DNA from: an uncultured delta proteobacterium
GTDB taxonomy: Bacteria > Desulfobacterota > Syntrophia > Syntrophales > Smithellaceae
NCBI GenBank assembly: GCA_963762595.1
Contig: CAVXLI010000025.1
Location: forward strand, 90,366-154,365
DNA length: 64,000 bases
Direction of reading: 5' to 3'
Made by a program: the position numbers and the translations under genes. Within the stretch, counting starts at the first letter, position 1. Each line of letters opens with the position of its first letter. The notes under the pieces are model-generated. The model had not been told where the DNA came from. It ran no database searches and was given only the letters and a program-made list of their open reading frames with translations. Shown here in pieces: positions 936-61,158 of the stretch.

Positions 936-1091
936 CTAGCAATTAATCAGACTCAAATATTACAAATGTAGTGCAGTAATATTTGCTAGTCGAATTAATG
1001 AAACTCGCTGAAAACAAACAGAGTAAAGTTTGAAGCGTTAGTTGAATTAATCCCGATAGCGAAGCGTATCGGGATATGGCAATTAGATAAT
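936..1091. repeat. Mosaic hairpin-module repeat cluster (locus R1): three to four units of about 50 bp, each a linker plus a hairpin
   Basis: The sequence reads ctagcaattaat + CAAATATTAC..GTAATATTTG hairpin, then ctagtcgaattaat + cgctgaaaac..gtttgaagcg hairpin, then ttagttgaattaat + ATCCCGATAgcgaagcgTATCGGGAT hairpin. The same modules recur at 19293, 21840, 24104, 44583, 44992, 46426 and 50291. Confidence 0.85.
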
Positions 1092-1258: not shown

Positions 1259-1821
1259 ATGAACAAAGAGTATATTGAAATCCGCTGGCATGGACGGGGC
1301 GGTCAGGGCGCAATAACGGCGGCAAAGATTGTTGCCGGAGCCGCCTTCGTCTCCGGTTATCCGGGAGTTGTCATGGCTCCAACCTTTGGCACGGAACGCA
1401 GGGGCGCACCGGTCATGACATCCCTGAAGATATCCAGGAGAAAAAATATATGATTTATCACCCATCGAAACACCGGACATCATTGTCGTCCTTGACCACC
1501 TGCTGCTTGCCGAGGCGGATGTAACACAGCGGCCTCAAACCCGGCGGGATCATCGTTTTGAACACACCAAAGGCTTTTGAATCCTACAACTTTAAAGATT
1601 ACAGGCTGGCAACCGCAGACATTACGGCCATATCTGTTGAGGCAGGTCTTCCTCACGGCATGGTAAATACAGGGATCATCGGATCGCTGGAAAAAGCCAC
1701 AAACCTCCTGGGAATGGATATCCTGATAAAAGGCATTGAAGAGGAATTCAGCACAAGAAAGCCCGAAAAGAACTCATTGGCGGCAAAGATTGCCTTTGAA
1801 AGAACTGTGACGGGAGGTTGA
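1259..1821 (+). CDS. porG: 2-oxoacid (pyruvate-type):ferredoxin oxidoreductase gamma subunit, disrupted as assembled (at least two frame switches)
   Basis: ORFs 1259-1453 ([29 protein letters not shown]) and 1558-1821 are bridged in a third frame by [20 protein letters not shown]. The gene order is gamma-delta-alpha-beta. The substrate (pyruvate or another 2-oxoacid) cannot be fixed from sequence. Confidence 0.7.
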
Positions 1822-2138
1822 AAATGGGCACCAGAAATTACAGAAGAAAAACTTCTCACAGCGAACACGGGCCGGGTGACGGCGGAAGGACCGGTTCATG
1901 GAGGGTGGAAAGGCCGGTTTTGGATCAAAGCCTCTGCATCCCCTGCAAAAGGAATAAAGAAGCCTGCTTCATCTGCTGGCTGTTCTGTCCGGATATTGTC
2001 ATTTCCAGAACGATACCGCCTAAGATCGATCTGGAATACTGCAAGGGGTGCGGCATCTGCGCTGAAGAATGCCCGACCAAGGCCATAACCATGGTGGACG
2101 AGGCGCAATTTTCAGAAGAAGACAAGGACAAGGAGTAG
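1818..2138 (+). CDS. porD: 2-oxoacid:ferredoxin oxidoreductase delta subunit (2x[4Fe-4S] ferredoxin-like)
   Basis: It carries TGSWRVERPVLD, CxxCxxxCxxCP-type motifs and CKGCGICAEECP. It overlaps the porG stop by 4 nt. The ATG at 1824 is an alternative start. Confidence 0.75.
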   Translation: MKMGTRNYRRKTSHSEHGPGDGGRTGSWRVERPVLDQSLCIPCKRNKEACFICWLFCPDIVISRTIPPKIDLEYCKGCGICAEECPTKAITMVDEAQFSEEDKDKE

Positions 2139-2143
2139 ACGCC

Positions 2144-3348
2144 ATGCATATTATAGAAAACGGAAACGTTGCAGCAGCTCTGGGCGTCAAGCTTTGCCGT
2201 GCCAATGTCATAGCAGCCTATCCCATCACACCGCAGACCCCTCTTACAGAAAAACTTTCCGAGTATGTTGAAGCAGGTGAAATGAAGGCCGAGTACATCC
2301 ATGTCGAGAGCGAACATTCCGCCCTTGCCGTATGCATTGCTGCATCATCGGCCGGCGCCAGGTCTTTTACCGCAACAAGCGCCAACGGGCTTCTTTACAT
2401 GCATGAACAGGTCCAGTGGGCAGCAGGTGCCAGGCTTCCCATTGTTATGTGTGTTGTCAACCGGGCGGTCGGCGCCCCATGGAATGTCTGGAATGACCAG
2501 CAGGACTCGATTTCACAGCGCGATACCGGCTGGATACAGATGTATTGCTGCTGACCACCAGCAGATAATTGATTCGGTCATCAAAGCATACTGGCTGGCG
2601 GAGAAGGTGAGCATTCCGATTATGGTCTGCTATGACGGGTATATCCTTTCTCACACGTACATGCCGTTTGATGTGCCCGAGCAGGAAAAGGTCGATGCGT
2701 TTCTGCCGCCATTTCAGGCCGGACTATGCACTTAACCCTGAGGAACCCGCCAATCTCAATACCGTGACCTTACCTGACGTACGTATGGATGTCAGAGGTG
2801 AGCTTGCCCACGGATATATGGAGATTCAGATATCTGCTTCAGGAAGAAATGCGGACAACGCTTACAGTCGCAGCTGAAGCGGAAAAAAGGTTTGCCGATA
2901 TATTTGGCCGGGGCGGCGATCCGTATATAGAGCCTTATCTTTGCGATGATGCGGAATATGTTGCCGTAGGCTTGGGATCACTGACCTACCAGCTGCGGGT
3001 TTCCGTTGATAGCCTTGAGAAAAGAGGGCATCAAGGTGGGCGTCATGGGCGTTCGCTTTTACAGGCCTTTCCCGGACGAGGCGATGGCCAATGCACTGAA
3101 AGGGAAAAAAGGCGTTATCGTCTTTGAAAAGGCATTGAGCTACGGTTATGAAGGTGCGCTGGTATCGGATTTAAAGTCCGCACTTTATGAACATCTTGCC
3201 GGTACAGGCGCCTTGCCGGTGGTCCAGAATTTTATTGCGGGAATCGGCGGCCGCGACATCCGGACAGATGATTTGACACAAACCCTCCGGGCGGCGACAA
3301 AAAGCAGGGTTTCGAAAGAGCCCGTATGGATAGGGCTTAAAACTATAG
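2144..3348 (+). CDS. porA: 2-oxoacid:ferredoxin oxidoreductase alpha subunit, disrupted as assembled (at least four frame switches)
   Basis: The fragments 2144-2554, 2301-2735, 2632-2877, 2789-3127 and 3006-... tile a PorA-like sequence (AAYPITPQT, ESEHSA). Removing one A from the AAAA run at 3339-3342 gives ..VWIGLKL-TAG at 3346-3348, just upstream of the porB RBS. Confidence 0.7.
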
Positions 3349-3357
3349 GAGAAGCAC

Positions 3358-4260
3358 ATGCAGGCCAAGACAACAATTTTAAGCTTACCGACAGAGGAAT
3401 TTGTCCATCCGGGAACAAGGGCGTGCACCGGCTGCGGCCTGGCCATCGCCTACAGGGTGGGTCTCAAGGCCCTGGGGAAAGACACCATCCTTGTTGTGCC
3501 GCCCAGCTGTCTTACCGTATTGCAGGGGCTTTTTCCGATTGCCTCGACCAAACTTCCCTGCCTGAATGTGACGTTTGCATCAACAGCAGCCGCAGCCACC
3601 GGAATTCTGGCAACCCTGAAGACACAGGGAAAGGATAATATCAAAGTGGCCGCATGGGCAGGCGACGGCGGGACAAGCGACATCGGCTTGCAGGCTTTAT
3701 CGGGCGCCGCAGAACGCGGCGATAACTTCATCTACCTCTGCTACGACAACGAAGGGTACATGAACACCGGTGTTCAGCGCTCGGGCACTACCCCTATCGG
3801 CGCTATGACCGCAAACACGCCGTTCAAGGGAAAGCTGCAGCAAAAAAAGGATGTGCCGGCAATCATGGCGGCGCATAACTTAAGCTATGTTGCCGCCTGT
3901 TCCGCTGCCTACCCGCTGGACCTTTTTGACAAGATCAGAAAGTGCATGGATATGCCGGGCACCAAGTACTTCCATATCCATATTCCCTGCCCGCCGGGCT
4001 GGGGATATGACCCGCGATACGGGATAAAGATCGGCAGGCTTGCCGTGGAAACCGGATATTATGACCTCTACGAAATAGTTAACGGTGAGTTCAAACTGAC
4101 TGCAGCATCCGAAAAGCTTGTGGAAAAACGCAAGCTGATACCGGTCCGTGAATACTTCCGCTCGCAGTCACGGTTCAAGATTCTTACCGATGCGCAGATC
4201 GCAGATATCCAGAATCAGATAGATGCGAAGTGGGCAGGTTATTATAAAAAAGACGAGTGA
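3358..4260 (+). CDS. porB: 2-oxoacid:ferredoxin oxidoreductase beta subunit (TPP-binding)
   Basis: This is an intact 300-aa ORF with GTRACTGCG, a GDGGTSDIG TPP motif and the RBS ggagaag. Confidence 0.85.
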   Translation: MQAKTTILSLPTEEFVHPGTRACTGCGLAIAYRVGLKALGKDTILVVPPSCLTVLQGLFPIASTKLPCLNVTFASTAAAATGILATLKTQGKDNIKVAAWAGDGGTSDIGLQALSGAAERGDNFIYLCYDNEGYMNTGVQRSGTTPIGAMTANTPFKGKLQQKKDVPAIMAAHNLSYVAACSAAYPLDLFDKIRKCMDMPGTKYFHIHIPCPPGWGYDPRYGIKIGRLAVETGYYDLYEIVNGEFKLTAASEKLVEKRKLIPVREYFRSQSRFKILTDAQIADIQNQIDAKWAGYYKKDE

Positions 4261-4345
4261 TACCATTCCGCTTTCTTTGGCTAACTTTGTTGGCAGCGTC
4301 GACGGCTTCCTCAGCGTATTAGTAATACGCCTGCGTCGCTTCTCA
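4261..4345. repeat. Second repeat family, copy 1 (core GGCTAACTTTGTTGG..AATACGCCT)
   Basis: It shares about 55-60 bp at roughly 75-80% identity (by eye) with 60955-61020. The flank taccattccgctttc is the inverse of cgaaagcgaaatggta at 61043-61058. Confidence 0.6.
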
Positions 4346-9973: not shown

Positions 9974-11784
9974 TTAATGTCTTCGCTTCTGTTCGATTTC
10001 CATAGTAAGCCGTAATGCCCGGCGAGCTTCCTCGTAATTGGGATTAAGATAAATTGCCTGGCGAAAATATTCGATAGCTTCATTTAATTTACCGGTATTG
10101 GCGAGAGCTATTCCCAAACTTAAATAGATTCCAGGATCGTCGGGATCTATTCGCAATGCCTGCCGGAAATGATATAAAGCCTCATTGTGCTTAAGCTGTT
10201 TTCCTAAAATTACACCTAAATTAATGTGCGCACTAGAATTATCCGAATTGGTGCGCAGAGCCTCACGGTAATGTGCAATCGCTTCTTCTAACTTCCCCTG
10301 CTTCTCAAAGGCAAGGGCTAAATTATAGTGAGCGTCGCTATAATCGGGAATAATCTTAATTGCAGCAATATAGTGGACAATAGCTTCGTCAATTCTTCCT
10401 TCATCGGCTAAAGCTACACCAAAGCTTGCGTGCGCCAGAAAATTATTATTTGTTACCTTTAAAGCATGATTAAATAGTTCGATACTGTTTTTCCAATAAC
10501 CGCACTGCTGCCAGGTTAAAAATGTTAAAGCGGCAAGAATAACCGTTCCAGGAATTATAATTATTTTACGCATTTTTTCCCTGGGCAATAAATAAACGAT
10601 ACCCCAGACCAGCATGATGGCGATACCGATGGAAGGCAGGTAAGTATAGCGGTCAGCCATGGCCTGCGAACCTGCCTGTAACAATCCAATTACGGGAAAC
10701 AAAGTAACCAAATACCAAAGCCAGCCTATAAAAAAGAAAGGAGCTTTCTTTATGCTGTAAATAGCAGCGATGCTGATCCCCAATAATAACAAAGAAGCGC
10801 CCAAGACTTGCCATAACGGCAATGAAAATTCATAAGGGTAAATTACCGCCAGATTAAACGGCCAGAAAGTTTTACCAAGATAAGAAATATAAGATACAAT
10901 GGCATTTATTATTCGATTAGAAAACGAAACTTGTTGTAGGGAAGCTATCCCGCCAGCGGTTTGTTGCTGCCAAATAAGCGCAATACTCAAAATCATTGCT
11001 AAAAAAAAGAACGGTACTTTCTCCCACAACAGATTACCGATTAATTGATGGCCGCTTCTGATAGGTTTGACTGTCTTTTTCTCCATCAAAGATTCGGCTT
11101 TGCGCTGTTTACTTTTTTTCTTACCAGCTCTTTTATTAGCTAATGCTGGAACATTCACTGGAGTTGAAGCTTTCTGCCATCTCTCTAACGGCCAGTAATC
11201 AAGCAAAAGCATAATAAAAGGCAGGGTAACCAGCATGGGCTTGGCCATCAAGCTCAAAGCAAACAATATTAAGCAAAGAAAATACTGAGAGACCTTTGAA
11301 CTCTTCGACATAATAGGCATATGCATAAAGACTCGCCATCCCGAAAAACACGCTCAAAACATCTTTGCGCTCTGATGCCCAGGCCACCGATTCCACCCGC
11401 AGGGGATGCAGGGCGAAAAGTGCGGCAACGAAAGCACTAGGCCAGAGTGCGCCGGTAGTTTTACTTAAAAAAAGAAAAAGGAGTATAGCGCTGCCAATAT
11501 GCCATAATAAACTTACCAGATGATGACCGGAAGCATTTGCTCCGAATAAGCTCCAATCCAGCATATGCGAAAGCCAGGTAAGGGGATGCCAATAGCTAAA
11601 GTATGTAGTGGTAAATGCCCATTGAATACTTTTTGCGTTAATGCCTTCTTTAATGTGATTATTTTCAGTAATGTATTTATTGTCGTCATAAATTAATAAA
11701 ATCATTGCCTATAATCCGGCCGAAAGCGATGAGGGAAAAAACAATTAATAATATGACAATTAAATATTTATATTTTTTATTCAT
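9974..11784 (-). CDS. TMTC/PMT-like GT-C membrane glycosyltransferase with C-terminal TPR repeats, paralogue A; disrupted as assembled (at least two frame switches)
   Basis: The N-terminus reads MNKKYKYL..GNDFIN-YDDNKYITENNHI..WHPLTWLSHMLD..GHHL. It has multiple TM segments and then TPRs (AHYNLALAFEKQGKLEEAIAHY). It is paralogous to the next two genes. Confidence 0.7.
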
Positions 11785-11823
11785 CAGTTGAGCCATCCGT
11801 TAAAAAATAAAATTCATTGATAT

Positions 11824-13943
11824 TTATCTCTTCTTTTCTTTTTCCAGGGATAAGGCCAGTTTCAAAGCCCGGCGGGCTTCTTCGTAATTGGGATTAAGAT
11901 AAATTGCCTGACGAAAATGTTCAATAGCTTCATTTAAATCGCCTTTATTGCCCAGAGCTACGCCTAAATTGAAATGGACACCGGGGTTTTGGGGTTCAAG
12001 CAGCAAAGCTCTGCGGTAATAGAGGATTGCCTCGTCATGTTTCTGCTGCCTTTCTAAATTAACGCCAAGATTATTAAGAGACGCGAAAGAAGAAGGCTTA
12101 ATTCGTACAGCTTCGCGGAAATGCTCAATGGCCTGGTCAATCTTGCCCTGTTTCACAAAGACATCGGCTAAATTATAATGGGCGTTGTCATGGTCACGAT
12201 TAATCTTGACTGCTTCCAGGTAATGGCTTATGGCCTGGTCGATTTGCCCCTGCTTTAAAAGCAAATTGGCTAAATTATAATGGGCATCAGCGTAATCAGG
12301 ATTGATTTTAATTGCCTCAAGATAATGGACAATGGCTTCTTCGTTTTTCCCTTGGGCAGCCAGAGCAATACCCAGATTGGAATGGGCTGCATCTTGATCG
12401 GGATTAATCTTGATTGCAGTCAAATAATGGGCGATGGCTTCCTCCGTTTTTCCCTTCGGCGGCCAGAGCAACTCCCAGATTGCAGTGGGCACTATCATGA
12501 TAGGGATTAATCGCAATTGCTTGACTGAAATGAACAATTGCCTCCCCGGTCTTCCCTTGTTTGATAAGAGCATTGGCTAAATTATAATGAGCCAGGTCGT
12601 TATTCTTAGTTATCTGCAAGGCGTGGTTATAGAGGGAGATGCTGCTTTTCCAGTAGCCGCACTGTTGCCAGGTCAAAAATGTCAAAACGGAAAGAACAAT
12701 AACTGCAGCAGGAATTAAAATTATTTTACGCAGTTTTTCCTGGGGCAATAAATAAACAATACCCCAGATGAGCATAATGCCGATGCCGATGGAAGGCAGA
12801 TAAGTATAGCGGTCGGCCATGGCTTGCTTGCCGACCTGCACCAAACCGATTACGGGAATAAGAGTTCCCAAGTACCAAAACCAGCCCACGAACAAAAAAG
12901 GTAATTTTTTAACCGTATAAATAACAGTAATAGTAATTGCGATCAAGATTAAGAGTGCGCCTGCGATAGGCAACTGCAAAAAGGGATCTTCATAGGGGTA
13001 AAACATGGCCAGATCAACCGGCCAAAAAATCTTCCCTAAATAAGAAACATAAGAGATGATAGCGTTGACGACACGTGCAGGAAAGGACAGCTGTTCCATG
13101 GAAGCAATTGCGCCACCTTTGTTTTGAGCCCAGATAGTCACAATGCTCGAAACGATTGTTAAAAAAATAAAAGGCGCCTTTTCCCATAAAAGAGAACGGA
13201 TTATTGAAGAGCGGCTCGCCGGCGGCGTGGATATCTTTTTCTCTTTAGTGGAATCGGCTTTACGCTGTTTAGGTTTCTTCTTTTCTGATCTTTCACTAGT
13301 CAGCTGCCGGTACGTTGGGGAGAGCGAGAGCCTTCTGCCATCTTCCCAGCGGCCAGTAATCAAGTAAAAGCATAATAAAAGGCAGGGTAACCAGCATGGG
13401 TTTGGCCATTAGTCCCAGAGCAAATAATGTTAAACAAAGAAAATATCTGGCAAGTTTTTGCTCTGCAACGTAGAGGGCATAGACGTAGAGAGTCGCCATA
13501 CCGAAAAACATGCTCAAAACATCTTTGCGTTCGGCCGCCCAGGCAACCGATTCCACCCGCAGGGGATGCAGGGCGAAAAGAGCGGCGACAAAAGCCGAAG
13601 GCCAGAGGGACTTTGTCGTTTTTTCTAAAAAGAAGAATAAAAAGAGGACACTGCCGATATGCAACAGTAAATTAATAAGATGATGACCGGAAGCGTTTGC
13701 TCCGAATAAGCTCCAGTCCAGAGCATGAGAAAGTAGCGTCAGCGGATGCCAGTTACTGGAGACAACAGCGCTAAATGCCCATTTGATCGTTTCCGGATTA
13801 AGGCCTGTTTGAATATGATTGTTTTCAGTGATATAAACGTTATCGTCGAAATTAATAAAATCATTGCCCATAATACGGCCAAAGGCAATAAAAGAAGCAA
13901 GAATTAAAAAAACTGTAATTATATATATGTATTTTTTATTCAT
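11824..13943 (-). CDS. TMTC/PMT-like GT-C membrane glycosyltransferase with C-terminal TPR repeats, paralogue B; disrupted as assembled (two frame switches)
   Basis: ORFs 13296-13943, 12404-13363 and 11824-12573 tile one protein of about 700 aa. It has the NFDDNVYITENNHIQ motif and the longest TPR array of the three. Confidence 0.7.
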
Positions 13944-14056
13944 CTATATTAAACATTCACATAAAAAATAATAAAAAAGAATTCACTAGTGTATTTATAA
14001 AAAAATTGTAAGTCAACTTCAAAACATGCCGCTATTAAAGAAATTGGTGATGGCAA

Positions 14057-15882
14057 TTAACGACTTTGTCGCTGTTGTATTTCCAATGCCCGTCGCAGTG
14101 CCAGCCGGGCATGGTTCATAATTGGGATCCAGATAAATTGCCGTACGGAAAGATTCAATGGCTTCTTTCAATTCGCCTTTTCTGCCCAGCGCTATTCCTA
14201 AATTAAAATGAACACCCGGATTGTTAGGATCAACCTGCAGTGCCTGCCGGTAATGATAAATAGCCTCGTCATGCTTGAGCTGCGCTTCGAGATAAACCCC
14301 TATATTATTATGAGCCTTGGAATAATAAGGGTTGATGCGCAGTGCTTCCCGATAATGCGCAATCGCTTCTTCATCCGCTCCCTGCTTCTTTAAGGCGTTG
14401 GCGAAATTATAATGAGTTGTGTCGTCATTGGGCTTTACCTGTAAAGCTAAGCGATAATGAGAAACGGCTTCATCAATTTTTCCTTCGGCAGCCAGGGCAA
14501 TGCCCAGATTGGTATGCGCCAGATAATTATTTTTGGTTACCTCCAGAGCATGGTTAAAAAGGGAGATGCTGTTTTTCCAGTAGCCGCATTGCTGCCAGGT
14601 CAAAAATGTCAAAACGGAAAGAACAATAACTGCAGCAGGAATTAAAATTATTTTACGCAGTTTTTCCTTGGGCAATAAATAAACAATACCCCAGGCCAGC
14701 ATAATGGCGATGCCGATGGAAGGCAGATAAGTATAGCGGTCGGCCATGGCCTGCCTGCCGACCTGCACCAAACCGATTACGGGAATAAGAGTTCCCAAAT
14801 ACCAAAACCAGCCGACAAAAAGAAAAGGAGCTTTCTTGATGAAGTAAATAACAGCAGCGCTGATTCCCAGTAAAAGTAATATGGCACTCAAAAACCTGCC
14901 ACATTGGAAATGAATATTCATAAGGATAAAATACCGCCAGATCAACCGGCCAGAAAATTTTACCATAGATAGGAAACATAAGAAATAGATCGCGTTTAAA
15001 ACACGTTCAAAAAAAGGCAATTTATCCAGAGAAGCAATCGCGCCGCCCTTGTTTTGCGCCCAGATAGTCACAATAGCTCGAAACGATTGTTAAAAAAATA
15101 AAAGGAATCTTTTCCCATAAAAGAGAACTGATTAATTGAAGGCGGCTTTTGACAGGCGTGGATATCTTCTTTTCTCCAGTGAGCATCGGCTTTACTCTTT
15201 TTACTTTTCTTCTTTTGCTGATCTTGGCAATAACAGCTGTCGTATCGCTTGGCGGAGATTGAGAGCCTTTTGCCATCTTCCCAGCGGCCAGTAATCAAGT
15301 AAAAGCATGACAAAAGGCAGGGTAACCAGCATGGGTTTGGACATCAGGCTCAAAGCAAATAATGATTAAACAAAGAAAATATTTGGAAAGTTTTATGCTC
15401 TTCAACATAAAAGGCATAGGCGTAAAGAGTGGCCATACCGAAAAACATGCTTAAAACATCTTTGCGTTCCGCCGCCCAGGCAACGGATTCCACCCGCAGG
15501 GGATGCAGGGCGAAAAGAGCCGCGACAAAAGCCGAAGGCCAGAGAGCTTTTGTTGTTTTGTTTAAAAAGAAAAACAAAAAGAGAACAGCGCCGATATGCA
15601 GAAGCAGGCTGACTAAGATGATGACCGGAAGCGTTTGCTCCGAATAAGCTCCAGTCCAGAGCATGAGAAAGCCAAGTCAGCGGATGCCAGTTACTGGAGA
15701 CAACAGCGCTAAATGCCCATTTGATACGTTTCGGTATTAATGCCGGATTTAATATGATTATTTTCAGTGATATAAACATTATCATCAAAATTAATAAAAT
15801 CATTGCCCAAAATACGGCCAAAAGCAATGAAAGAAGCAACGATTAAAAAAATGATAATTAGATATTTATATTTTTTATTCAT
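14057..15882 (-). CDS. TMTC/PMT-like GT-C membrane glycosyltransferase with C-terminal TPR repeats, paralogue C; heavily disrupted as assembled (at least five frame switches)
   Basis: Six overlapping ORF fragments span 14019-15839. The reconstructed C-terminus ..NYE-HARLALRRALEIQQRQSR stops at 14057. The segment 14540-14790 is nearly identical to 12590-12870. Confidence 0.6.
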
Positions 15883-15913
15883 GAGCGGGAAATAGGGGAG
15901 AATGTTATTAAGT

Positions 15914-19292: not shown

Positions 19293-19482
19293 TCAATGAC
19301 ACTCGTTGAAAACAAACGAAGTGAAGTTTGAAGCGCAAGTGGAATTAATGAAACTCAGATATTGCAAGTGCAGTGCAGTAATATCTGTTAGTTGAATTAA
19401 TCCCACCGAAGGCGGGGTTGATCCCGTAAGCGAAGCTTATCGGGATTGATTGCTTAAGCGAAGCGATGCGGGATAATTCGAG
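19293..19482. repeat. Mosaic hairpin-module repeat cluster (locus R2) filling the convergent gap between the NYN gene and holA
   Basis: There are six modules joined by caagtggaattaat, ttagttgaattaat, ttgat and attgat linkers. The last module is inverted, so GAATTAATCCC (19394) and GGGATAATTC (19470) form outer inverted repeats. Confidence 0.85.
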
Positions 19483-21839: not shown

Positions 21840-22070
21840 CCCGCTTATGCGGGATGAATTCAGCTAACAAATATTACTGCATTGCGTTTGTAATATTTGA
21901 GTTTCATTCATTCGACCAGCAAGTTTCAGCGGTGACGTGACCTTTAGGTTGTGCGCTATATTTCTGAAACTTGGGTCTCATTGCAATTTACCAATTCCGG
22001 CCTGTGACCTCTTGTGACCTTCAGGTTATTAGGTTATACGCTCCGCTTTCGGAATTGGAGTTTCACTAAT
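21840..22070. repeat. Mosaic hairpin-module repeat cluster (locus R4) between hisC and rpsU
   Basis: In minus-strand reading the modules are: a CCAATTCCG..CGGAATTGG hairpin with a 51-nt loop; a CAAGTTTCAG..CTGAAACTTG hairpin containing AACCTAAAGGTCAC; the CAAATATTAC..GTAATATTTG hairpin; the linker ttagctgaattcat; and CCCGCataaGCGGG. Confidence 0.85.
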
Positions 22071-22146: not shown

Positions 22147-23220
22147 TCACGCTCCTAACTCAGAAATAGCGCTTTTTAAAGACTTTAAAAAAGCCTCGTT
22201 TTCTTTAGGGTTTCCTACTGTAACCCTCATGCAGTTTGGCGTCAGCTGTTGTATTTATATTTTTAATGATAATACCGTCTGCCGCAAGTTTATTATATAT
22301 GCGATCTGAGTCAAAAGCGCAACTAAAAAAAATAAAATTCGCCAGACGAAGGATAAGGCTTAATCCCGGCAACTTCTTTCAAGCCGGAATAAAGCTCTTC
22401 ACGGCTTTTGACTATTTGCAGAACTTGCCGGGAGAATTCATCCTGATTGTCCAGAAAAAAATTAGCCGCTATTTGCTGACAAACAATTAACGTTATATGG
22501 CAATCTAACTTTATCCAATTGAGCGATAATATCTCTATTGCCGATTAAGAAACCAAGGCGCATCGAGGCCAATCCCAATTTGGACAGCGTATTCAAAAAA
22601 ACCAAATTATCGTATTTTTTAAGCAAAGGCAGCAAAGTTCGACCGGAAAAATCGGCATAAGCTTCATCAATGACGACAACTCCTGGAGTTTTCTTAATGA
22701 TGGTCTCTATTTTATCCCGGTTAAAAAGATTACCGGTGGGACTGTTGGGATAACTTAAAAAAATCAAAGAAGGAAAAGTTGATTTAATTTTACTCAGCAT
22801 TGCATCAATATCCAGATCAAATTTCTTATCCAGAGGAACTTCCAACACTTTATTGCCGGTATTGACCGCAATTATCTTGTACATGACAAAAGTAGGAACG
22901 GGAACAAGTACGCCATTTACTTTGCCTTTGAGCGTCATACAAAGCATTTGAATCAGTTCGTCTGATCCGTTGCCCAGCATAATCATATCCTTGTTTACGC
23001 CGTAATACTGGGCAAATCTTTCACGCAATTTAGGCGCTCCGGCTTCAGGATAGCGATTTAAATCAACTTTACCCATTTCTTCCAGGAGTCTTTTCTTTAA
23101 AGGTTCCTGGATAGCTGAAAGGATTCTCGTTGGCGTCCATTTTTATTTCGCCTGTTTGCTCCGGCGCTATATAGCCGCTTTGCTCAAAAATTTCTTTGCT
23201 TACAAATCTCGAAAAATCAT
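22147..23220 (-). CDS. hisC: Histidinol-phosphate aminotransferase, disrupted as assembled (at least three frame switches)
   Basis: The sequence reads IKMDANENPF, then ..LLEEMGKVDLNRYPEAGAPKL.. (ORF 22462-23076, with the YPNSPTGN motif). The reconstructed C-terminus is LRVTVGNPKENEAFLKSLKSAISELGA. The start ATG at 23220 becomes in frame if the T5 run is T6. Confidence 0.75.
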
Positions 23221-24103: not shown

Positions 24104-24257
24104 TATCCCGAAGCGCTTCGCTTAGGGGATCAATTCCGCTAACACTTCAAACTTCACTTCGTTCGTTTTCAGCGAGCGTCTATCCCCGTGCGCTTCGCTT
24201 AGGGGATCAATTCCGCTAACACTTCAAACTTCACTTCGTTCGTTTTCAGCGAGCGTC
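24104..24257. repeat. Tandem direct repeat, 2 x 77 bp, of a two-module unit of the mosaic family (locus R3)
   Basis: Positions 24104-24180 and 24181-24257 differ at 3 positions, all in the ATCCC(C)..GGGGAT stem-loop. The reverse complement reads ctcgctgaaaac..gtttgaagtg + ttagcggaattgat + cccctaagcgaagcgcacgggg. Confidence 0.9.
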
Positions 24258-24662
24258 ATTGATTAATCGCTCTCTCTTCTTGCGTTATAAAATCATGATA
24301 AGCAGCAGCAACAAGAAGGTCTTCCAGTTGTTCCAGGTCGTCCATTTCAATGACAACCAGCCATCCCGTATCATGAGGATCACTGTTTATTATGCCTGAT
24401 ATCTTCATTAATATCTTCATTAATATTTACAACAGTGCCGCTAACGGGAGAAATTAAATCCACCACCGTCTTTAGTAGATTCGATGGAACCAAATGTTTC
24501 GTCACGCTCCACATAAGTATCAATTTCAGTAAATTCAACTGATAAAATTTCCCCCAGACTTTCCTGAGCGTAATCAGTAATCCCTATCGTGGCCATATTC
24601 CCGTCAACCCGCACCCATATATGCTCGCGACTATATAGTATATCTTCCGGAAAAACTTTCAT
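24256..24662 (-). CDS. gcvH: Glycine cleavage system H protein, disrupted as assembled (two frame switches); contains a 12-bp tandem duplication
   Basis: The sequence reads HIWVRVDGNMATIGITDYAQ..SIESTK, then VVDLISPVSGTVVNINEDINEDI, then GIINSDPHDTGWLVVIE. The stop TGA is at 24256-24258. Confidence 0.75.
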
Positions 24663-24681: not shown

Positions 24682-25768
24682 TTATTCTATAATGATAAGT
24701 TCTTTATCCATTTTTGTAAGTTTTTCGCAACTATTTTCTTTCACTAGAACAGTATCCTCAATTCTGATGCCCCAAAGCCCGGGAAAATATAGTCCAGGCT
24801 CAACTGTAACCACCATTTTCGCCTTTAAAATATCCTTGGAATTTGATGCAAGACGCGGTGCTTCATGAACTTCCAGACCGACGCCGTGTCCTGTTCCATG
24901 AGAAAAATACCGGCTATATTTTTCTCCGAAAGCGCTGCGCGCACAATTATCAATATCAGCGGCGGAAATATTCGCTTTGATGATGGCGATGGCTCGATCA
25001 TGAGCATTCTTGACTGATTGATAAGCATTCTTTTGCTTCATCTGTCAATTCCCCAAAAGCAATAGTACAGGTTTCGTCAGAACAATATCCTTTGTACTTT
25101 ACGCCAAAATCAATGACAATAAAATCTCCCTTTTTAATTTTTCTATTAGTCGGCCGGGCATGCGGAAGAGCAGAGTTTGCTCCCGCAGCTACAATCGTTT
25201 CAAAAGCAAGTTGATCGGCGCCTGATTTTCGCGCATTAAATTCCAGTTGCAGAGCTAAATCTTTTTCTGTACAGCCGGGCTTTATTTGAGCGATAAGGGA
25301 AAGAATAGCAGATGAAGAAATTTCCGCGGCTTTTTTCATTAGCGCTATTTCCGTTTCATCTTTGCGCGCTCTGATTAATCTCAGTTCGTCAGCTAAAGGC
25401 ACAAACACCTCGTTGTGCAGGCATTTGGTTAACTTGTTATACATTTCAACAGTTATAAAGTCCGCCTCGAAGCCGATATTTTTTAAGTTGTAATCTTTTA
25501 TTGCTTGAGTAATTCCTTCAATTTTATCCTTATATTCGATTATTTGGATATCAGTCACTTCCAAGGCGGCTTGAGCGGTATAGCGACCGTCAACAAGTAA
25601 GATTGTCGTGCCGGAGTTAATTAAAAGAACGCCATCACTGCCGGTAAATCCCGAAAAAAAACGGATATTACTCATGTTTAAAAAAATTATACTGTCGACT
25701 TTATAATCGGGAAACTTATGGCGAATGAGGGAAATCCTGGCCGGGGGAATTTTATTTTTCTGCTGCAT
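24682..25768 (-). CDS. M24-family Xaa-Pro aminopeptidase, disrupted as assembled (one frame switch near 25000-25040)
   Basis: ORF 24998-25768 holds the creatinase-like N-domain and DFGVKYKGYCSD. ORF 24682-25041 holds HGTGHGVGLEVHE and IRIEDTV. Confidence 0.75.
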
Positions 25769-44582: not shown

Positions 44583-44862
44583 TTAATCACGGGTATAAAT
44601 TCCAAAGCACGCTTTGGAATTTATACCCTCCGCTGTGCGGGATAATTCGACTAACGAATTTCAGCGGCAGTGATCTTTAGATTAGTGCTCCGCTTTCAAA
44701 GCTGTGTCATTATCGCTTACGCGGGATAATTCGACTAACCAATTTCAGTACACTGCGTTTATATTATTATGGAGTCATTAATCCCGATTCGCTGCGCTCA
44801 CGGGATAATTCGCTCATCAAACTTTAGTGCGCTCCGCTTCTAAAGTTTGTGGCTCATTAAAA
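44583..44862. repeat. Mosaic hairpin-module repeat cluster (locus R5) immediately 3' of tRNA-Gly
   Basis: In minus-strand reading there are about 7 modules separated by cgaattat, attaat and ttagtcgaattat (twice). They include a perfect 18-bp-arm hairpin at 44591-44628 and a CAAACTTTAG..CTAAAGTTTG hairpin. Confidence 0.85.
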
Positions 44863-44937: not shown

Positions 44938-44991
44938 TCGAGAACTGAGAATCTTATTCAACAGTAATTATTTGTCAAGGTGTTTTAATAA

Positions 44992-45090
44992 GACTCAAGT
45001 TTGAGGAACGTAGTGAATAACCTAAAGGTCACATGCTGCTGAAACTTGTAAGTCGAATTATCCCGATAGCGTAGTGTGTCGGGATTGATG
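44992..45090. repeat. Mosaic hairpin-module repeat cluster (locus R6) upstream of tRNA-Gly
   Basis: A CAAGTTT..AAACTTG hairpin with AACCTAAAGGTCAC in its loop is followed by the linker taagtcgaattat and CCCGAtagcgtagtgtgTCGGG. Confidence 0.8.
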
Positions 45091-45279
45091 GACTACTAAG
45101 GTTATTTTGATTTGTATTCCTTTGTAATCATGCATTTATTTCCTTTTGGAAAAAAATAACATGTGTTATGATAATATTCAAAATACGCGTGACCCTTAGG
45201 TTATCGGAAAAAACAAAGTTCGTATATTAATTGTTATGTGTATATATATATCAACAACACTAAAAAAGGAGGATAAAAC

Positions 45280-46396: not shown

Positions 46397-46425
46397 TTTT
46401 TATTTTACAGACCAATTTTATTGTT

Positions 46426-46503
46426 GAAACTCCAATTCCGAAAGTGAAGCGTATCGGAATTGGTAAGTTGAACAATCCCGCAGCTTGCTGCGGAATGAGT
46501 TTC
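46426..46503. repeat. Mosaic hairpin-module repeat cluster (locus R7)
   Basis: The sequence reads GAAACTC + CCAATTCCGAaagtgaagcgtaTCGGAATTGG + taagttgaacaat + CCGCAGCttGCTGCGG + aatGAGTTTC, so the termini are inverted. Confidence 0.8.
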
Positions 46504-46509
46504 CAAAGC

Positions 46510-46866
46510 TTACTTTAGGGGTTCATACCCGTGATTTACGATTAGCCCTTTTTCCTGCAATATTTTTATAACGGTATCTGAATTTTCCACGGTAAACCCA
46601 ATACGCCACCATTTATAACGGATGAAAGCGAAAAATATCTTGTCCCGTTTGTATCTCTGAAAATCCTTGGGAAACCAGGTTTTGAAATCTCCGGTGCCGT
46701 GGAAGCGGAATTTTCCATTCCAAAGGGAAGATTTCTTAACGACGATTTTTTCAATTTCGGAGAATAACACCATCCTGTCGCGTTCAAAAAAACCGTAACG
46801 CTTGAAAAGAATGCTTTTATTCGTAATCGCAACCAAAGAATCAGAATAAATAACATCTTTAGCCAT
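46510..46866 (-). CDS. Hypothetical protein (118 aa), translationally coupled to hisD
   Basis: This is an intact ORF whose start overlaps the hisD stop by 8 nt. I recognise no motif with confidence. Confidence 0.5.
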   Translation of the reverse strand: MAKDVIYSDSLVAITNKSILFKRYGFFERDRMVLFSEIEKIVVKKSSLWNGKFRFHGTGDFKTWFPKDFQRYKRDKIFFAFIRYKWWRIGFTVENSDTVIKILQEKGLIVNHGYEPLK

Positions 46867-50290: not shown

Positions 50291-50420
50291 TTAATGAAAC
50301 TCGCTGAAAACGAGCGCAGCGAAGTTTGAAGCGTTAGCTGAATTAATCCCATAGCCAAGGCTATCGGGATATGGTTAATATCTCATATAGTGCAGCGATT
50401 CTTATTTTGAGTTCAGGTCT
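50291..50420. repeat. Mosaic hairpin-module repeat cluster (locus R8) in the prfA-prmC intercistronic gap
   Basis: The sequence reads gaaactcgctgaaaac..gtttgaagcg + ttagctgaattaat + CCCATAGCCaaGGCTATCGGG + atatgg, colinear with 1000-1080, followed by a degenerate third module. Confidence 0.85.
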
Positions 50421-53315: not shown

Positions 53316-53687
53316 AAATACTTCCTTACTTTAAATTCTAATTAAGCAATGTTATTCCGATACGATATATTCATTTTTACTGCGTTATTTTTCAAGAAAT
53401 ACACAAGGATAATCACGAATTTTTTAAAATTTACGGATTAAATATCGGCTTGTTTATTTGAATACTTGAAACTCTCCAAAGGGCAGGGCTTATAAAAGCC
53501 TCTAACGAATTGTATGAAATATTATATTAATATTGATGGACTGTCAAGATATTTTCTTGTATTAACGCATTTCTTTTGAGATATAATGTTTTTGAGCGGG
53601 CTACCGATTTTTTTCTTGATTCCTGAGCGGCACTAAACTAAATAATTTTATATAATTATTTTGTCCGGTGGAAAGGTTTTGGTTTTT

Positions 53688-55150
53688 ATGGAAGAAATAA
53701 AAAATAATGAAAAGAAGGCTATTGAACCGATCGATACTCCTTCTGAAATTTCTATGGAAGAGCTAATGCCGGAATTGCGCGCCGCTTGTGAGCGTGCTGG
53801 CTGGAAAATTCTCACACCGGTGCAGGCCAAAGCTATTCCCTATCTTTTGGCCGGCCGCGATATGATGGTTCAATCGCGAACCGGCAGCGGTAAAACCGGC
53901 GCCTACCTTTTGCCGATAATGCAAAAAATTGATTTACAACAAAATGTCGCCCAGGCTTTGGTGCTCGTTCCCACCCGCGAGCTTGCCTTGCAAGTATCCA
54001 AGGAAGCCCAAATGCTGTTCGGAAAATACAGGTATGAAAACAGCTGTTGTTTATGGCGGAGTGGGCTACAATGCGCAACTGGAAGCTTTTCGCAACGGTG
54101 CTCAGCTTGTTGTCGGCACGCCGGGAAGAATCTTGGACCATCTGCTGAAAAACACTCTTTCTCTTGATCATCTTAAAGGTATTGATTTTCGACGAGGCTG
54201 ACCGAATGTTATCCATGGGATTTTATCCCGATATGGTAAAAATTCGTAAATATATACCTACGCATGAAATAGCCAGCAGTATGTTTTCCGCGACTTTTCC
54301 GCCGCAGGTGATTCGTTTAGCCGATCAATTTCTGCGACAGCCTCAATTATTGAGCTTAAGCGGCAATCAGGTGCATATTGCCGAAATAGAACATGTTTAT
54401 TATGTTGTGCCGGGTATGCGCAAAGAAAGATCGCTGGTGCGCATAATTGAAATAGAAAATCCCGCCTCGGCCATTATCTTTTGCAATACAAAAGACACAG
54501 TGCATTATCTTTCCGTTGTGTTGAAACGTTTTGGCTATGATGCCGATGAACTGAGTTCCGATCTGGCTCAAAGCATGCGGGAGAAGGTTATGGCTCGGGT
54601 GCGGCGCGGCGCCCTGCGCTTTTTAGTAGCAACGGACGTGGCGGCTCGGGGCATTGATATTCCCGATCTTTCTCATGTAATTCAATACGAGCCGCCGGAA
54701 GACCCGGAAGCTTACATCCACCGTGCCGGACGCACGGGTCGCATGGGATCAAGCGGTGTCGCTATTTCGCTGGTTGCGGAAATGGAAAAATTCAAACTGC
54801 AAAGCATTGCCCGTTATTACAATATTAACATGGAAGAACGCCCGCTTCCCGGCGATGAAGAGCTGGAAAGGATTGTTGCCGAACGGATAACGGCGCTTTT
54901 GGAGGCGCGTCTCCGTGCCCGCGATAATCTTCAAATTGAGAGAATGCAGCGATTCGCGCCTTTGGCGCGAACTTTATCCAGGGCGGAAGACCAGTTGGCA
55001 TTAATTACCATGTTGCTGGATGATTATTATCAGCAATCATTACACGCGCCGCCGGTTCAACCGGCCGCTGGAACCGAGCAAACTTCAAGCTTGCAGCAAA
55101 AATCAAAAAAAAGAAGGCCTCGTTTGGGAAATAAAAGAGAAAAGAAGGGA
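53688..55150 (+). CDS. DEAD-box ATP-dependent RNA helicase, disrupted as assembled (at least two frame switches); 3' end uncertain
   Basis: It has TPVQAKAIP, SRTGSGKT, PTRELA, (F)DEADRML, SAT and HRAGRTGR. As assembled it reads in frame into the next gene through an A8 run at 55105-55112. Confidence 0.8.
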
Positions 55151-55159
55151 ATAAAATTT

Positions 55160-56069
55160 ATGAAATATAAATATTTATATTCAATAAAAAATATTATTAA
55201 TTTAATTTGTTATTGTCTTCTGCTATCTTTACTTGTTTCCTGCGCTTCAACACCGAAAGAAATTTTGACTTCAAAACAGGCTCAAATCGCGGTTGTTTTA
55301 GGTGCCGGTGCGTCTAAGGGTTTTGCTCATATCGGAGTTTTAAAAGTTCTGGATTCACATAAGATTCCTATTCATATGATTGTGGGTACCAGCGTCGGTT
55401 CCTTTGTCGGCAGCCTCTATGCTTACGGCTATAGTCCCTACGAATTGCAGACTATTGCTTTTGCCATTCAAAAAGACGATGTTGCCGATTATATCATGCC
55501 CGATAACGGTTTTATCAAAGGAGAAAAACTAGAAAGCTTTGTCAACAATAAATTGAAATATACACCAATAGATAAATTTAAAATTCCCTTTTATGCCGTA
55601 GCCACAAATATTCAAACCGGCGAAGAGATGATTTTCGGACGCGGAAATGCAGGGAAGGCCGTGCGGGCAAGCTGTTCAATTCCCGGAATTTTCAATCCCG
55701 TGGTAATATAGGTGATAAGTATTATGTGGATGGGGGAGTGGTAAATCCTTTGGCTGCGGATGTAGCCCGCAGGTACGGTGCGGATGTAGTAATTGCAGTG
55801 GATATATCATCGAGTGTTGGGACGTGCCGCACCGAACCGGCACGGTGGAAACGATTATGCAGGCGATTGATATAATGTATAATAAGATAGCGGCCATTCA
55901 ACTTAAAAACGCCGATGTGGTAATTAAACCGAAAGTCGGGCACATTGGTTCCAGCGATTTTTCCAAGAGACATGAAGCCATCATGGAAGGCGAAAAGGCG
56001 GCAGTGGAAGCCATGCCGGCAATTAATCAAATCATTGCCAAACTAAAGCAGGAAGGACGGCTGCCATAA
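55160..56069 (+). CDS. Patatin-like phospholipase (RssA-like) with lipoprotein-type signal peptide, disrupted as assembled (two frame switches)
   Basis: It has the signal MKYKYL..LLVSCAS, GAGASKG, GTSVGS (GxSxG) and DGGV.. (catalytic Asp region). The C-terminus is in ORF 55824-56069. Confidence 0.75.
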
Positions 56070-59474: not shown

Positions 59475-60855
59475 GTGCTTCGCCAAGACACCATAGCAGC
59501 GATAGCCACTCCTTTGGGCACGGCAGGAGTCGGAATAATTAGGGTCAGCGGACCCAAAGCTCATGAAATAGCGCGCCGTATCTTCCAACCCACCGCAAAA
59601 AATTGTCCATGGGAAGAGTCACTTTCTGTATCATGGCGATATTGTTTCAGCCGATGGCAAAACAATCCTCGATGAAGTTTTAATGTCTTACATGCATCAA
59701 CCGCACTCCTTTACAGGAGAAGACGTTATTGAAATCAACTGCCATGGCAGTCCGCTCATCATGCAGACCATTTTGACACAATTGGTGGAATTGGGCTGCC
59801 GTCTGGCGAAGCCCGGCGAATTTTCCGAGCGCGCTTTTCTCAATAACCGCCTCGATTTATCGCAAGCGGAAGCACTTGCTGCTATGATTTCCGCCAAATC
59901 TCCAAAAGCCTACGCCATTGGTCTTGCCCAGTTAAAAGGAGGACTGAGTCTCGAAGTGGAAAACCTGAGAAATCTTTTGATCGATGCGCTGGCCTTACTG
60001 GAAATCGCGATTGATTTTTCCGAGGATGTATCCGTAGGCGAGACTCCAGAATTACCGCCGCAAATAGATTCGGCAGCCGAGCGTGTAAGGTTACTTTTGT
60101 CATCGTATCAAACGGCAAAAATATACACCGAAGGCATCAATGTCGTCATTACGGGCAAACCCAATGTGGGCAAATCCAGCCTACTCAATGCGCTTGCGGG
60201 CAAAAAAAAGGCTATTGTTACCGATATACCCGGTACAACACGTGATTTAATTACGGATACCATCAACATTAGCGGCATTCCTTTAAATCTGGTGGATACT
60301 GCCGGAATTAGAAAACCGCAAAACGCCATCGAAAAAGAAGGAATAGACCTGGTCTGGGAAAATCTGGCCAATGCCGATGTTGTGATTATAATTCTGGACG
60401 TCAGTAAACCCTTAACCAATGAAGACAAAAAAATTATTGCTAAGAATAAAAATAGCAATATTCTTATCGCCATCAATAAAATTGATCTGCCGCCTTCCTG
60501 GGAAATAAAAAAAATCGAGCGTTTAATTCCGCGAGGAAAAAAAATTCTTAAAATATCGGCAAAATTCGGCACGGGATTGGAAGAATTGAAAGATACTATT
60601 ATTGATGCTTCCAGTAACAGTATGGAGAAAAATACCGGTGAAATGATGATTACCAATTTACGCCATAAACTGGCGTTGGGAAATGTCCAAAAAAATATTC
60701 AGGCGGCGAAAAACAGCATTAGCGGAGGCATGTCGCCGGAATTTGCCGTTTTCGAGCTGCGTGAAGCCTTAGATCATCTGGACGAAATCACCGGTAAAAA
60801 AATTAATGACGAAGTACTGGATAAGATATTCTCCAGCTTCTGCATCGGCAAGTAA
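59475..60855 (+). CDS. mnmE: tRNA uridine-5-carboxymethylaminomethyl modification GTPase MnmE, disrupted as assembled (one frame switch at the A6 run 59597-59602)
   Basis: It has [20 protein letters not shown], then [35 protein letters not shown], and the C-terminal FCIGK. Confidence 0.9.
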
Positions 60856-60872
60856 TATCAATTTGCTTGTAA

Positions 60873-60893
60873 GTTACCGCCTTGCAGGCGGTA
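60873..60893 (+). terminator. GC-rich hairpin downstream of mnmE (terminator-like, no clean T-tract)
   Basis: TTACCGCC-ttgca-GGCGGTAA forms an 8-bp stem, followed by the palindrome TTACCGGTAA. Confidence 0.35.
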
Positions 60894-60924
60894 ATTACCG
60901 GTAAGGTAAAAATTATTTATTATG

Positions 60925-61058
60925 CGCTCCCTTATGGAAAGCGCTTCCGGTCATCGGCTAACTTTGTTGGTATCGGCGTCGGCTTCTTCAACGTATGTAC
61001 AATACGCCTCCGGCGCCTCCTCCTTGCCGCCTCGTTATCCTTCGAAAGCGAAATGGTA
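60925..61058. repeat. Second repeat family, copy 2
   Basis: The core GGCTAACTTTGTTGG..GGCTTCTTCAACGTATGTACAATACGCCT matches 4279-4335. It is flanked by GGAAAGCG and CGAAAGCGAAATGGTA. Confidence 0.6.
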
Positions 61059-61158
61059 TAAATTGAATCTCGTATAACTTTATGCTAGCATAACGTAATC
61101 TATCGGCAAGATTTTTTATAGTAAGATTATCAAAAAACAAACAAATTGAGGTAAAATA

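Follow-up and report, generated by a model that had tools for sequence, protein, structure and literature searches.

Head-to-tail mosaic arrays of a structure-defined hairpin family between Smithellaceae genes: probable non-autonomous miniature mobile DNA elements

The two described repeat systems that come closest to the one reported here are the REP/BIME-REPIN elements of Enterobacteria and Pseudomonas and the Neisserial intergenic mosaic elements, or NIME. The REPs are intergenic, imperfect palindromes of 20-40 nt with a GTAG-type head, predicted to fold in single-stranded DNA (ssDNA) or RNA, which reach hundreds of copies, form mosaic clusters with inverted doublets or alternating orientation, receive new copies in or next to resident ones without target-site duplication, and go together with a single-copy RAYT gene (Y1, PF01797) flanked by the repeats (PMC3116915). 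In NIME, the dRS3/NTS hairpins, ATTCCC-N8-GGGAAT with a 5' CGTC, alternate with different RS units of about 50-150 nt, and the NTS, written CGTC-ATTCCCGCG-MAV-GCGGGAAT-CYRG, is a strand-specific ssDNA hairpin target, cut single-stranded by the GIY-YIG nuclease SsnA, with the Ssn gene (cd10448 GIY-YIG) flanked by the repeat and Ssn-related motifs found in four phyla (PMC11893778). Here we describe, from a 64,000-nt stretch of DNA of an uncultured delta proteobacterium of the Smithellaceae (contig CAVXLI010000025.1, positions 90,366 to 154,365 of the forward strand, assembly GCA_963762595.1), called the window throughout, a family of hairpin repeats lying in eight intergenic arrays, in which a long frame hairpin (F) is usually followed by a short A hairpin, and we consider its members, with a probability of about 0.6, to be miniature mobile DNA elements that are non-autonomous, defined by their structure, and specific to the Smithellaceae lineage.

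The original prediction, made from the letters of the window, had described a conserved 14-nt linker alternating with independent hairpin modules at 936-1091 and at seven other loci. Related units are present at all eight places, according to sequence reading, to repeat detection, which joins all eight loci (repeat groups D9, D13, D16, D17 and I1-I20), and to a covariance model named R1, which detects 13 units in the window (E-values between 1e-16 and 0.02), all inside the eight loci and none elsewhere, besides a borderline, incomplete match that covers the A hairpin at 1051-1074 (E 0.89). The linker is enriched when taken as the degenerate 14-nt TTAGYYGAATTAAT with at most 2 mismatches, which has 14 matches vs. 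4.4 +/- 2.1 in shuffled sequence, with 0 of 100 shuffles reaching 14, but the short word GAATTAAT alone is not, being found 10 times where 8 are expected. It is the grammar of linker plus independent module that had to be given up, since the two halves of the linker form base pairs across the module and change in a compensatory manner (ATTGT/ACAAT, TCAAT/ATTGA, TAGT/ACTA), so that the unit is one long hairpin. The GTTAG that had been read into the linker consensus appears only where a 2-nt bulge is TT, and it is not conserved in the alignment (column 44, T 65 and C 24; column 45, A 49 and T 39).

On what we call the GA strand, the F unit reads 5' (T)TAAT-GA-X4-S10-[R A R Y G N A R Y G M A]-S10'-NN-X4'-GA-ATTA(T) 3', and it is a single hairpin of 48-56 nt with a constant scaffold. 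At its base AAT pairs with ATT and X4 with X4', the 2-nt bulge (NN) lies on the 3' side, and the facing GA dinucleotides give invariant tandem G.A/A.G mismatches, to which B-type stems add a further tandem G.A (CGCT-GA-AAAC / GTTT-GA-AGCG). The apex is a GNA triloop on a 2-bp mini-stem, that is, a mini-hairpin of the GCGNAGC type, closed by C-G or Y-R and often exactly GCGNAGC. Within this scaffold each subfamily has its own 10-bp stem (S10), in which the changes are fully compensated, the versions including CGCTGAAAAC, CGCTGAGAGC, CGCTGAAAAT, CAAATATTAC, CAGATATTAC, CAAGCTTCAG, CAAATTTCAA, CCAATTCCGA, and CAAACTTTAA; the AAAC/GTTT at the top of the stem is replaced in other subfamilies by GAGC/GCTC or AAAT/ATTT, and the basal stem covaries as well (TTAAT/ATTAA, TCAAT/ATTGA, ATTGT/ACAAT, TTAGT/ACTAT, TGAAT/ATTCA). 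Between neighbouring long hairpins, ATTAAT forms a palindrome flanked by G.A/A.G mismatches and makes up their shared base. The GA strand is not equivalent to its complement, because there the purine mismatches would become T.C/C.T, and this fits a strand-specific process. At 936-1091 the sequence folds into three successive hairpins (z = -5.7), of which the first unit reads ...CTAGCAATTAAT-CAGACT-CAAATATTAC-N12-GTAATATTTG-CTAGTCGAATTAAT, the second GAAACT-CGCTGAAAAC-N12-GTTTGAAGCG-TTAGTTGAATTAAT, and the third CCCGATAGCGAAGCGTATCGGGAT. In comparison with REPs, the Smithellaceae units are longer, keep TGA...GAA and the GNA apex with no GTAG head, and let the stem sequence vary freely among subfamilies. 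Two known RNA folds that the UGA...GAA pattern might recall were discarded by inspection and motif knowledge: the hammerhead, whose core residues are absent (UUAAUGA vs. CUGAUGA), and the K-turn, there being no 3-nt bulge beside the G.A pairs.

The stems that had been proposed have very strong covariation behind them. In an alignment of 92 distinct units, 90.4% of the cells assigned to the F structure are paired, compared with 65% after column shuffling and 28-40% with slid partners, and in 20 of the 21 base pairs both partners change; the way the units were detected dictated the four X4 pairs, but none of the other 17. RNAalifold, run independently, gives the same fold. In the window together with 116 related loci, a scan for the frame TGA-X4...rc(X4)-GAA finds 176 matches with an inner length of exactly 34 nt, and shuffled DNA gives 1. 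Mismatches within copies are nearly symmetric (G.T 43 vs. A.C 31), from which it follows that the covariation sits between subfamilies, that is, between source copies, and is not maintained at each locus; this fits a structure that is needed in the source copies and decays after insertion.

About 85% of the F units have directly after them the A hairpin, of 23-24 nt, (A)TCCC-...-GC-GNA-GC-...-GGGA(T), in which the outer stem and the apex mini-hairpin are conserved and the middle consists of purine-rich internal loops, and the composite of F and A is 77-78 nt long, 5'-TAATGA...GGGA-3'. Many arrays end with a terminal (T) module, ATCCCGC-N3-4-GCGG-A-GGGT...(optional CCCCGCAGCTTGCTGCGG...CCAAAGCTTGCTTTGGGG)...TTCATACCC-GTGAT, which can be read as an A hairpin interrupted by one nested hairpin or by two. 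Its end recurs where many arrays finish on their 3' side, and ATACCCGTGAT was counted 31 times, in 26 loci. Yet another component is an element of 18-21 nt, TAACCTRAAGGTCAC(N3-6), found at the loop/3'-stem junction of many F hairpins of several stem types and, in addition, within the loop of a repeat of about 140 nt that is unrelated to them. Across 31 loci it has 40 copies, including four in the window (21938, 22015, 45019, 45190), of which the one at 45190 is solitary, and it looks like a very small mobile element in its own right. A small open reading frame (ORF) on the opposite strand of a composite of B, A, and a further hairpin was rejected, as it is not conserved in the window copy. The grammar of the F/A arrays is closest to that of NIME and also close to REP/BIME-REPIN: as in NIME, a short CCC...GGG inverted repeat alternates with different longer units, and the hairpin is oriented and strand-specific in a strongly amplified, one-lineage family. 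The A hairpin itself, ATCCC-N13-16-GGGAT or, more closely, (A)TCCC-N15-16-GGGA, with a GNA apex in a GC-GNA-GC core and GAATTA before it, is nevertheless unrelated to NTS and does not have the NTS sequence, and the units between the A hairpins, in contrast to the RS units, are one conserved hairpin family.

That the family would not be confined to the eight loci is borne out by the exact B-module pattern, CTCGYTGAAAAC-N12-GTTTGAAG, which is present in at least 116 stretches of species-representative genomes, where about 2 chance matches are expected, given about 19.5 specified bases and 596 Gb searched on both strands. Among the matches listed, 113 of 116 belong to metagenome-assembled genomes (MAGs) named Smithella, Smithellaceae, Syntrophaceae, or Deltaproteobacteria. 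Two others are short contigs with complete units, L011 from a MAG labelled Bacteroidales and L062 from a MAG labelled Moraniibacteriota (L numbers denote the listed loci), which are probably mis-binned, since they hold complete units of Smithellaceae type in MAGs of unrelated phyla; the remaining match, in Guopingia, was dismissed as chance, as it lies in a coding region and is without the frame. The family is limited to one lineage, Smithella/Smithellaceae. In the approximately 1 Mb made up of the window and the related loci there are 239 frame units, with an array density of about 1 per 9-17 kb when the arrays used to find each locus are not counted, and extrapolated to a whole genome this gives arrays in the low hundreds. 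As had been stated, every copy in the window lies between genes, in co-directional, convergent, or divergent gaps. The family is extragenic and highly repeated in the sense of REP, and its likeness to REP/BIME as an amplified intergenic mosaic family is upheld. Several listed loci share synteny and 77-90% nucleotide identity with the window, which places it in a Smithellaceae genome, the closest among the matches listed being L087 (Smithellaceae SPRUCE 595). From viral contigs the family is nearly absent, with one B unit in one viral contig, and a phage vector was dropped for that reason. In Rfam, a tRNA is the sole match above the gathering threshold in the whole window, E-value searches of 880-1200 and 46400-46560 returned only chance-level snoRNA and miRNA matches, and a literature search found no description of repeats in Smithella or Syntrophaceae, in agreement with the expectation that no annotated family would correspond. 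We are apparently dealing with an undescribed family of miniature mobile hairpin elements, whose general kind is known from other bacteria.

Movement is indicated by a comparison of the orthologous loci L090 and L059, where L090 has one precise 77-nt insertion with unambiguous ends and no target-site duplication, GTCG/TAATGA...TTGGA/AATTAT, or in letters ...GCGTTAGTCG / TAATGAGACT-CAAACTTTAA-...-GAATTTTCCAATAGCC-TTT-GGCTATTGGA / AATTATCCC..., the slashes marking the ends of the insertion. In both L030 and L046, a B' unit is interrupted at an identical point, where its loop joins the 3' stem, by a 78-nt composite that is a different one in each locus; the ends of these composites, TAATGA...GGGA, are compatible with those of the L090 insertion. 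Within single MAGs there are composites at different loci that are identical over about 77 nt, the identity stopping at ...GGGA. The 77-78 nt composite behaves as a mobile unit. In addition, orthologous gaps with flanking genes 80-90% identical hold different arrays (the NYN-holA and tRNA-rimP gaps), and units are replaced between conserved flanks in L015 vs. L075.

The arrangement of the arrays is also regular. In 47 of 50 multi-unit arrays all units have a single orientation, head-to-tail, which differs from the inverted doublets and alternating orientation of REPs, and the start-to-start spacing is 52 nt, where F directly follows F, or 71-80 nt, where F is accompanied by A. Arrays begin more often than expected immediately 3' of T-runs, many of which are clearly terminators, with TTTT upstream of 25 of the 119 starts, AAAA upstream of 9 of the 119, and a background of 7%. 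A bias with respect to the replication strand finds no support between 20 and 52 kb, where the GC skew is uniform and three arrays point each way, although a single window is a small sample for this question.

According to the mobile-element reading, the copies would spread in the form of a single folded strand, the GA strand with its purine mismatches, which would most likely be ssDNA. They would insert without target duplication and in a fixed orientation, and would prefer sites associated with hairpins: immediately 3' of the T-runs of terminators and, in resident copies, at the base or at the loop/3'-stem junction. Such insertion would build head-to-tail, nested, and mosaic arrays, within which the shared scaffold sequences would further enable module swapping by recombination. 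The scaffold of the proposed unit would consist of the AAT/ATT base, two or three tandem sheared G.A pairs, the 2-nt bulge, and the RY-GNA-RY apex. We infer an ssDNA intermediate and a putative trans-acting, structure-specific enzyme, either HUH/Y1-like or another ssDNA nuclease or recombinase. In DNA, tandem sheared G.A pairs in the context 5'-Y-GA-R are a stable motif. GCGNAGC likewise folds, as DNA, into a mini-hairpin of extraordinary stability that contains a sheared G.A pair, and it is found at ssDNA priming signals (PMC13037366). Between DNA and RNA, four points favour ssDNA, if not conclusively, namely the GNA-triloop apices, the Y-GA-R tandem G.A pairs, the lack of a sense bias per array, and the arrays beyond terminators.

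Several observations weigh against the mobile-element reading. The L059/L090 pair is the only clean empty-vs-filled site recovered, and the 5' flanks of the insertion points (GTCG, CGAAA, T-runs) are not a conserved tetra- or pentanucleotide, as IS200/IS605 would need. The module replacement between conserved flanks could be due to recombination or gene conversion instead of transposition, and tandem 77-nt duplicates may come from replication slippage. The window copies are diverged, with the best pair identical at 64 of 83 nt, and the family may for this reason be inactive in this genome. Regarding the enzyme itself, tblastn with E. coli RayT and Y1 consensus sequences, which are imperfect queries, gave no match in about 1 Mb sampled, a weak negative because the sample is small and such genes are usually single-copy. 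Clustering of ORFs of at least 120 aa in the loci yielded only orthologous housekeeping clusters and no multi-copy transposase, and the 11 ORFs with modules on both sides look, by eye, like ordinary housekeeping or membrane proteins, none of them resembling a nuclease or recombinase. The long intervals from a 5' leader (TGAAACTCCAAT) to a 3' T module were likewise examined as autonomous elements and rejected, being separate arrays that flank ordinary genes.

The NIME-like grammar leads to another explanation, which we find unlikely, in which the arrays are target or binding sites maintained by the host, their hairpins, above all ATCCC...GGGAT, being recognised by a host protein such as an Ssn-type GIY-YIG nuclease, and in which growth and shuffling are mainly the work of homologous recombination through the shared scaffold, as proposed for the Neisserial elements. 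In its favour, different 50-nt units take turns with a short CCC/GGG inverted repeat, modules are exchanged between conserved flanks at orthologous sites, and there are two small GIY-YIG genes in sampled Smithellaceae loci, L040 and L068, but both of these are flanked by other inverted repeats (CCCCGTTAGAGAT... and GTCATTGCGAG...), and no Ssn-type gene flanked by F/A modules was found in the sampled loci. Precise, duplication-free insertion and nesting in hairpin loops would moreover be unexpected from homologous recombination, and near-identical composites at unrelated loci also count against this explanation. Concerning the two genes in their own right, that of L040 (587-900) is a small single-domain GIY-YIG gene within the inverted repeat CCCCGTTAGAGAT…ATCTCTAACGGGG, that of L068 has an NTS-like hairpin GTCATTGCGAGACGCA…TGCGTCGCGGCAAT before it, and they may be Ssn-type gene-repeat pairs unrelated to the F/A family.

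Distinctly less probable still is that the hairpins act as RNA, as 3' untranslated region stabilisers against exonucleases or as processing or protein-binding sites, in the way that REP can in E. coli mRNAs. It is true that the covariation is equally compatible with RNA, that the GA strand is the sense strand of the adjoining gene at 7 of the 8 window loci, and that the array at 936-1091 has a stop codon on one side and, on the other, a hairpin that resembles a terminator and carries a T-run. The unit-level count of 56 sense vs. 23 antisense points the same way, but it is inflated by multi-unit arrays, and counted per array the orientation relative to the flanking genes has no significant bias (43 sense and 31 antisense, p = 0.2), so that we dropped it as evidence of RNA function. 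The copy between prfA and prmC is antisense, many arrays begin after a terminator T-run and hence past the end of the transcript, G.U is not clearly above A.C among the mismatches, the apices are GNA triloops of the DNA mini-hairpin type and not GNRA or UNCG tetraloops, and no Rfam family matches. As to the remaining proposal, that the modules are attC-like sites using the same recombinase as integron-like cassettes at 45.7-46.4 kb, we find it hardly credible, and it is already contradicted by the anatomy of the F unit. It arose from a ParE toxin cassette with attC-like AAC...GTTAG hairpins that adjoins two arrays and from some B units reading ...AAAC-N12-GTTT...GCGTTAG, and the original prediction had noted this geometry. 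An integron attC, however, is defined by R''(RYYYAAC)/R'(GTTRRRY) at the hairpin base together with cassette ORFs, and the modules do not have these features: their AAAC/GTTT lies at the top of the stem and varies between subfamilies, the GTTAG reading hangs on the variable 2-nt bulge and is not conserved, and the modules occupy ordinary housekeeping gaps with no tie to cassette ORFs.

Returning to the mobile-element reading, other known kinds of small element resemble the family in part. With IS200/IS605-derived elements (PATE) it has in common the lack of terminal inverted repeats and of target duplication, the asymmetric hairpin-bearing ends, and orientation-specific insertion; in PATE, however, a conserved 4-5 nt 5' target matches a left-end guide, the hairpins are subterminal, and a cognate TnpA (Y1) exists, whereas the Smithellaceae flanks are G, AAA, and T-runs, the hairpins stand at the very ends, and imperfect consensus queries matched no Y1 gene in the sampled DNA. 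Classical miniature inverted-repeat transposable elements have terminal inverted repeats and a target-site duplication, and here neither is seen, with ends TAATGA.../...GGGA and the clean L090 vs. L059 junctions. The BOX elements of Streptococcus pneumoniae, in which boxA, boxB, and boxC modules follow a fixed A-Bn-C order, are similarly modular, intergenic, variable in module number, and predicted to be stably folded, but they belong to another lineage and have no scaffold with variable compensating stems. The small dispersed repeats (SDR) of Nostoc and other cyanobacteria, attributed to Elhai et al. 2008, are reportedly very small and insert into hairpins and into each other, so as to become nested, and to our knowledge no transposase is known for them. 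The Smithellaceae family shares the nesting of very small elements, the TAACCTRAAGGTCAC element being of SDR size, but it is found in another phylum with unrelated sequences, and its main element is a 77-78 nt two-hairpin composite with a conserved scaffold. A tentative extension, which we would put forward as no better than a one-in-several guess, is that the F hairpin is a substrate of a structure-reading, sequence-agnostic ssDNA insertion machinery aimed at loop/stem junctions and terminator ends, which would also move the TAACCTRAAGGTCAC element; if true, this would be a second, independent case of the cyanobacterial phenomenon of very small mobile elements.

The copies in the window are collected in the table below. 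Among the locus limits first given, 50291-50420 contains modules only to 50370, and 46426-46503 has to be extended to about 46536, in the form of a T module. The internal units of the array at 44644-44860 are unlike those at the orthologous site in L087.

Table. Hairpin units and composite modules of the eight arrays in the window (F, frame hairpin; A, ATCCC hairpin; T, terminal module; R1, covariance model)
Feature	Position	Strand	Basis
F unit, CAAATATTAC/GTAATATTTG stem type, degenerate 5' frame	943..998	+	R1 match 949-993, 47.7 bits, E 5e-10; folds as hairpin
F unit, B type (CGCT-GA-AAAC / GTTT-GA-AGCG), ATTAAT basal stem in common with preceding unit	995..1050	+	R1 73.2 bits, E 8e-17
A hairpin ATCCCGATA-GCGAAGC-G-TATCGGGAT, GCGAAGC mini-hairpin apex	1050..1075	+	repeats D13/D16, fold
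Two adjoining F units, 52-nt period: B type 19293-19348, CAGATATTGC type 19345-19400	19293..19400	+	R1 72.1, 45.8 bits
Three A-type hairpins: 19400-19418, 19421-19446, degenerate 19447-19474	19400..19474	+	D13/D16, sequence reading
Short A hairpin CCCGC-TTAT-GCGGG	21840..21855	-	sequence reading
F unit, CAAATATTAC type	21855..21910	-	R1 60.5 bits
F unit, CAAGTTTCAG type, tiny element AACCTAAAGGTCAC nested at loop/3'-stem junction	21907..21984	-	R1 25.3 bits; interrupted-frame scan
F unit, CCAATTCCG type, two tiny elements nested in loop	21981..22071	-	sequence reading; repeat I13
Tandem duplicate of B-type F plus A, 77-nt period, 96% identical	24105..24262	-	D17; R1 71.7, 49.7 bits
Parts of the tandem duplicate: F 24207-24262, 24128-24183; A 24182-24207, 24105-24130	24105..24262	-	
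T module ATCCCGC..GCGG-A-GGGTATAAATT..AATTTATACCC-GTGAT; A split by nested hairpin	44585..44643	-	conserved at orthologous L087 locus
Array right downstream of tRNA gene, after TTTT run	44644..44860	-	R1 30.9, 47.6 bits
Parts of the tRNA-side array: interrupted F 44644-44712, truncated A 44711-44727, degenerate F 44726-44781, A 44781-44806, F 44805-44860	44644..44860	-	
F unit (CAAGTTTGAG type, tiny element 45018-45035 nested) plus A hairpin 45060-45085	44987..45085	+	R1 19.6 bits, E 0.018
F unit, CCAATTCCGA type, ATTGT/ACAAT basal stem	46421..46476	+	R1 64.1 bits
T module ending in GGGGTTCATACCCGTGAT	46475..46536	+	sequence reading, T-module comparison
B-type F (50291-50346) plus A (50346-50370), prfA-prmC gap, antisense to operon	50291..50370	+	R1 70 bits

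The window has further features besides these arrays. The segment 44987-46540 (1.55 kb) is absent from the closest listed relative, L087, where the flanks are 90% identical; it holds an ORF for a 137-aa membrane protein and an antitoxin/ParE toxin pair with attC-like hairpins at 45734 and 46342 on either side, the antitoxin ORF seeming to be broken by a stop codon, and it is bordered by F and A on the left and by F and T on the right, both on the + strand, with no integrase gene seen nearby. The repeat of about 140 nt mentioned above (…TTGGCTAACTTTGTTGGCAGCGTCG…AATACGCCTGCGG…), with TATACCA…TGGTATA ends, constitutes a second family, located in the window at about 4258-4340 (truncated) and about 60855-61062, which occurs in many Smithellaceae loci and differs in presence and absence between L015/L089 and L042. 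At 9974-15900 there are three tandem paralogous units of about 2.1 kb that encode TPR-repeat proteins, 60-90% identical and spaced by 2160 and 1930 nt, with a related copy in L072. Genes that look split or frameshifted are found at 53661-55711, 22462-23076, 24682-25768, and 1259-4260, including a DEAD-box helicase broken at 54164-54167, incomplete ORFs for an aminotransferase and an M24 peptidase, and many overlapping short ORFs in the GC-rich 1.2-4.3 kb region; either pseudogenes or indels in the assembly may account for them. Finally, the cumulative GC skew has its minimum at about 48-52 kb, and the gene orientation changes from mostly minus to plus at about 52-53.6 kb, upstream of rho; this change near 48-54 kb could be connected with replication, or there may simply be a divergent pair of genes.

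The manner in which elements of tens of nucleotides spread is understood for few families, partly for REP/RAYT, recently for NTS/Ssn, and not at all for the cyanobacterial SDR. The Smithellaceae family amounts to a natural mutagenesis experiment, and an unusually clean one, on the structure by which it is recognised: at least 10 fully compensated stem variants on an invariant scaffold imply that the machinery reads the geometry, the G.A pairs, and the GNA apex, and not the stem sequence. At a practical level, the arrays are probable assembly breakpoints in Smithellaceae MAGs, and the repeats can be used as lineage markers to spot mis-binned contigs such as L011 and L062. For the organisms themselves, the finding means that the intergenic regions of Smithellaceae turn over much faster than their genes.

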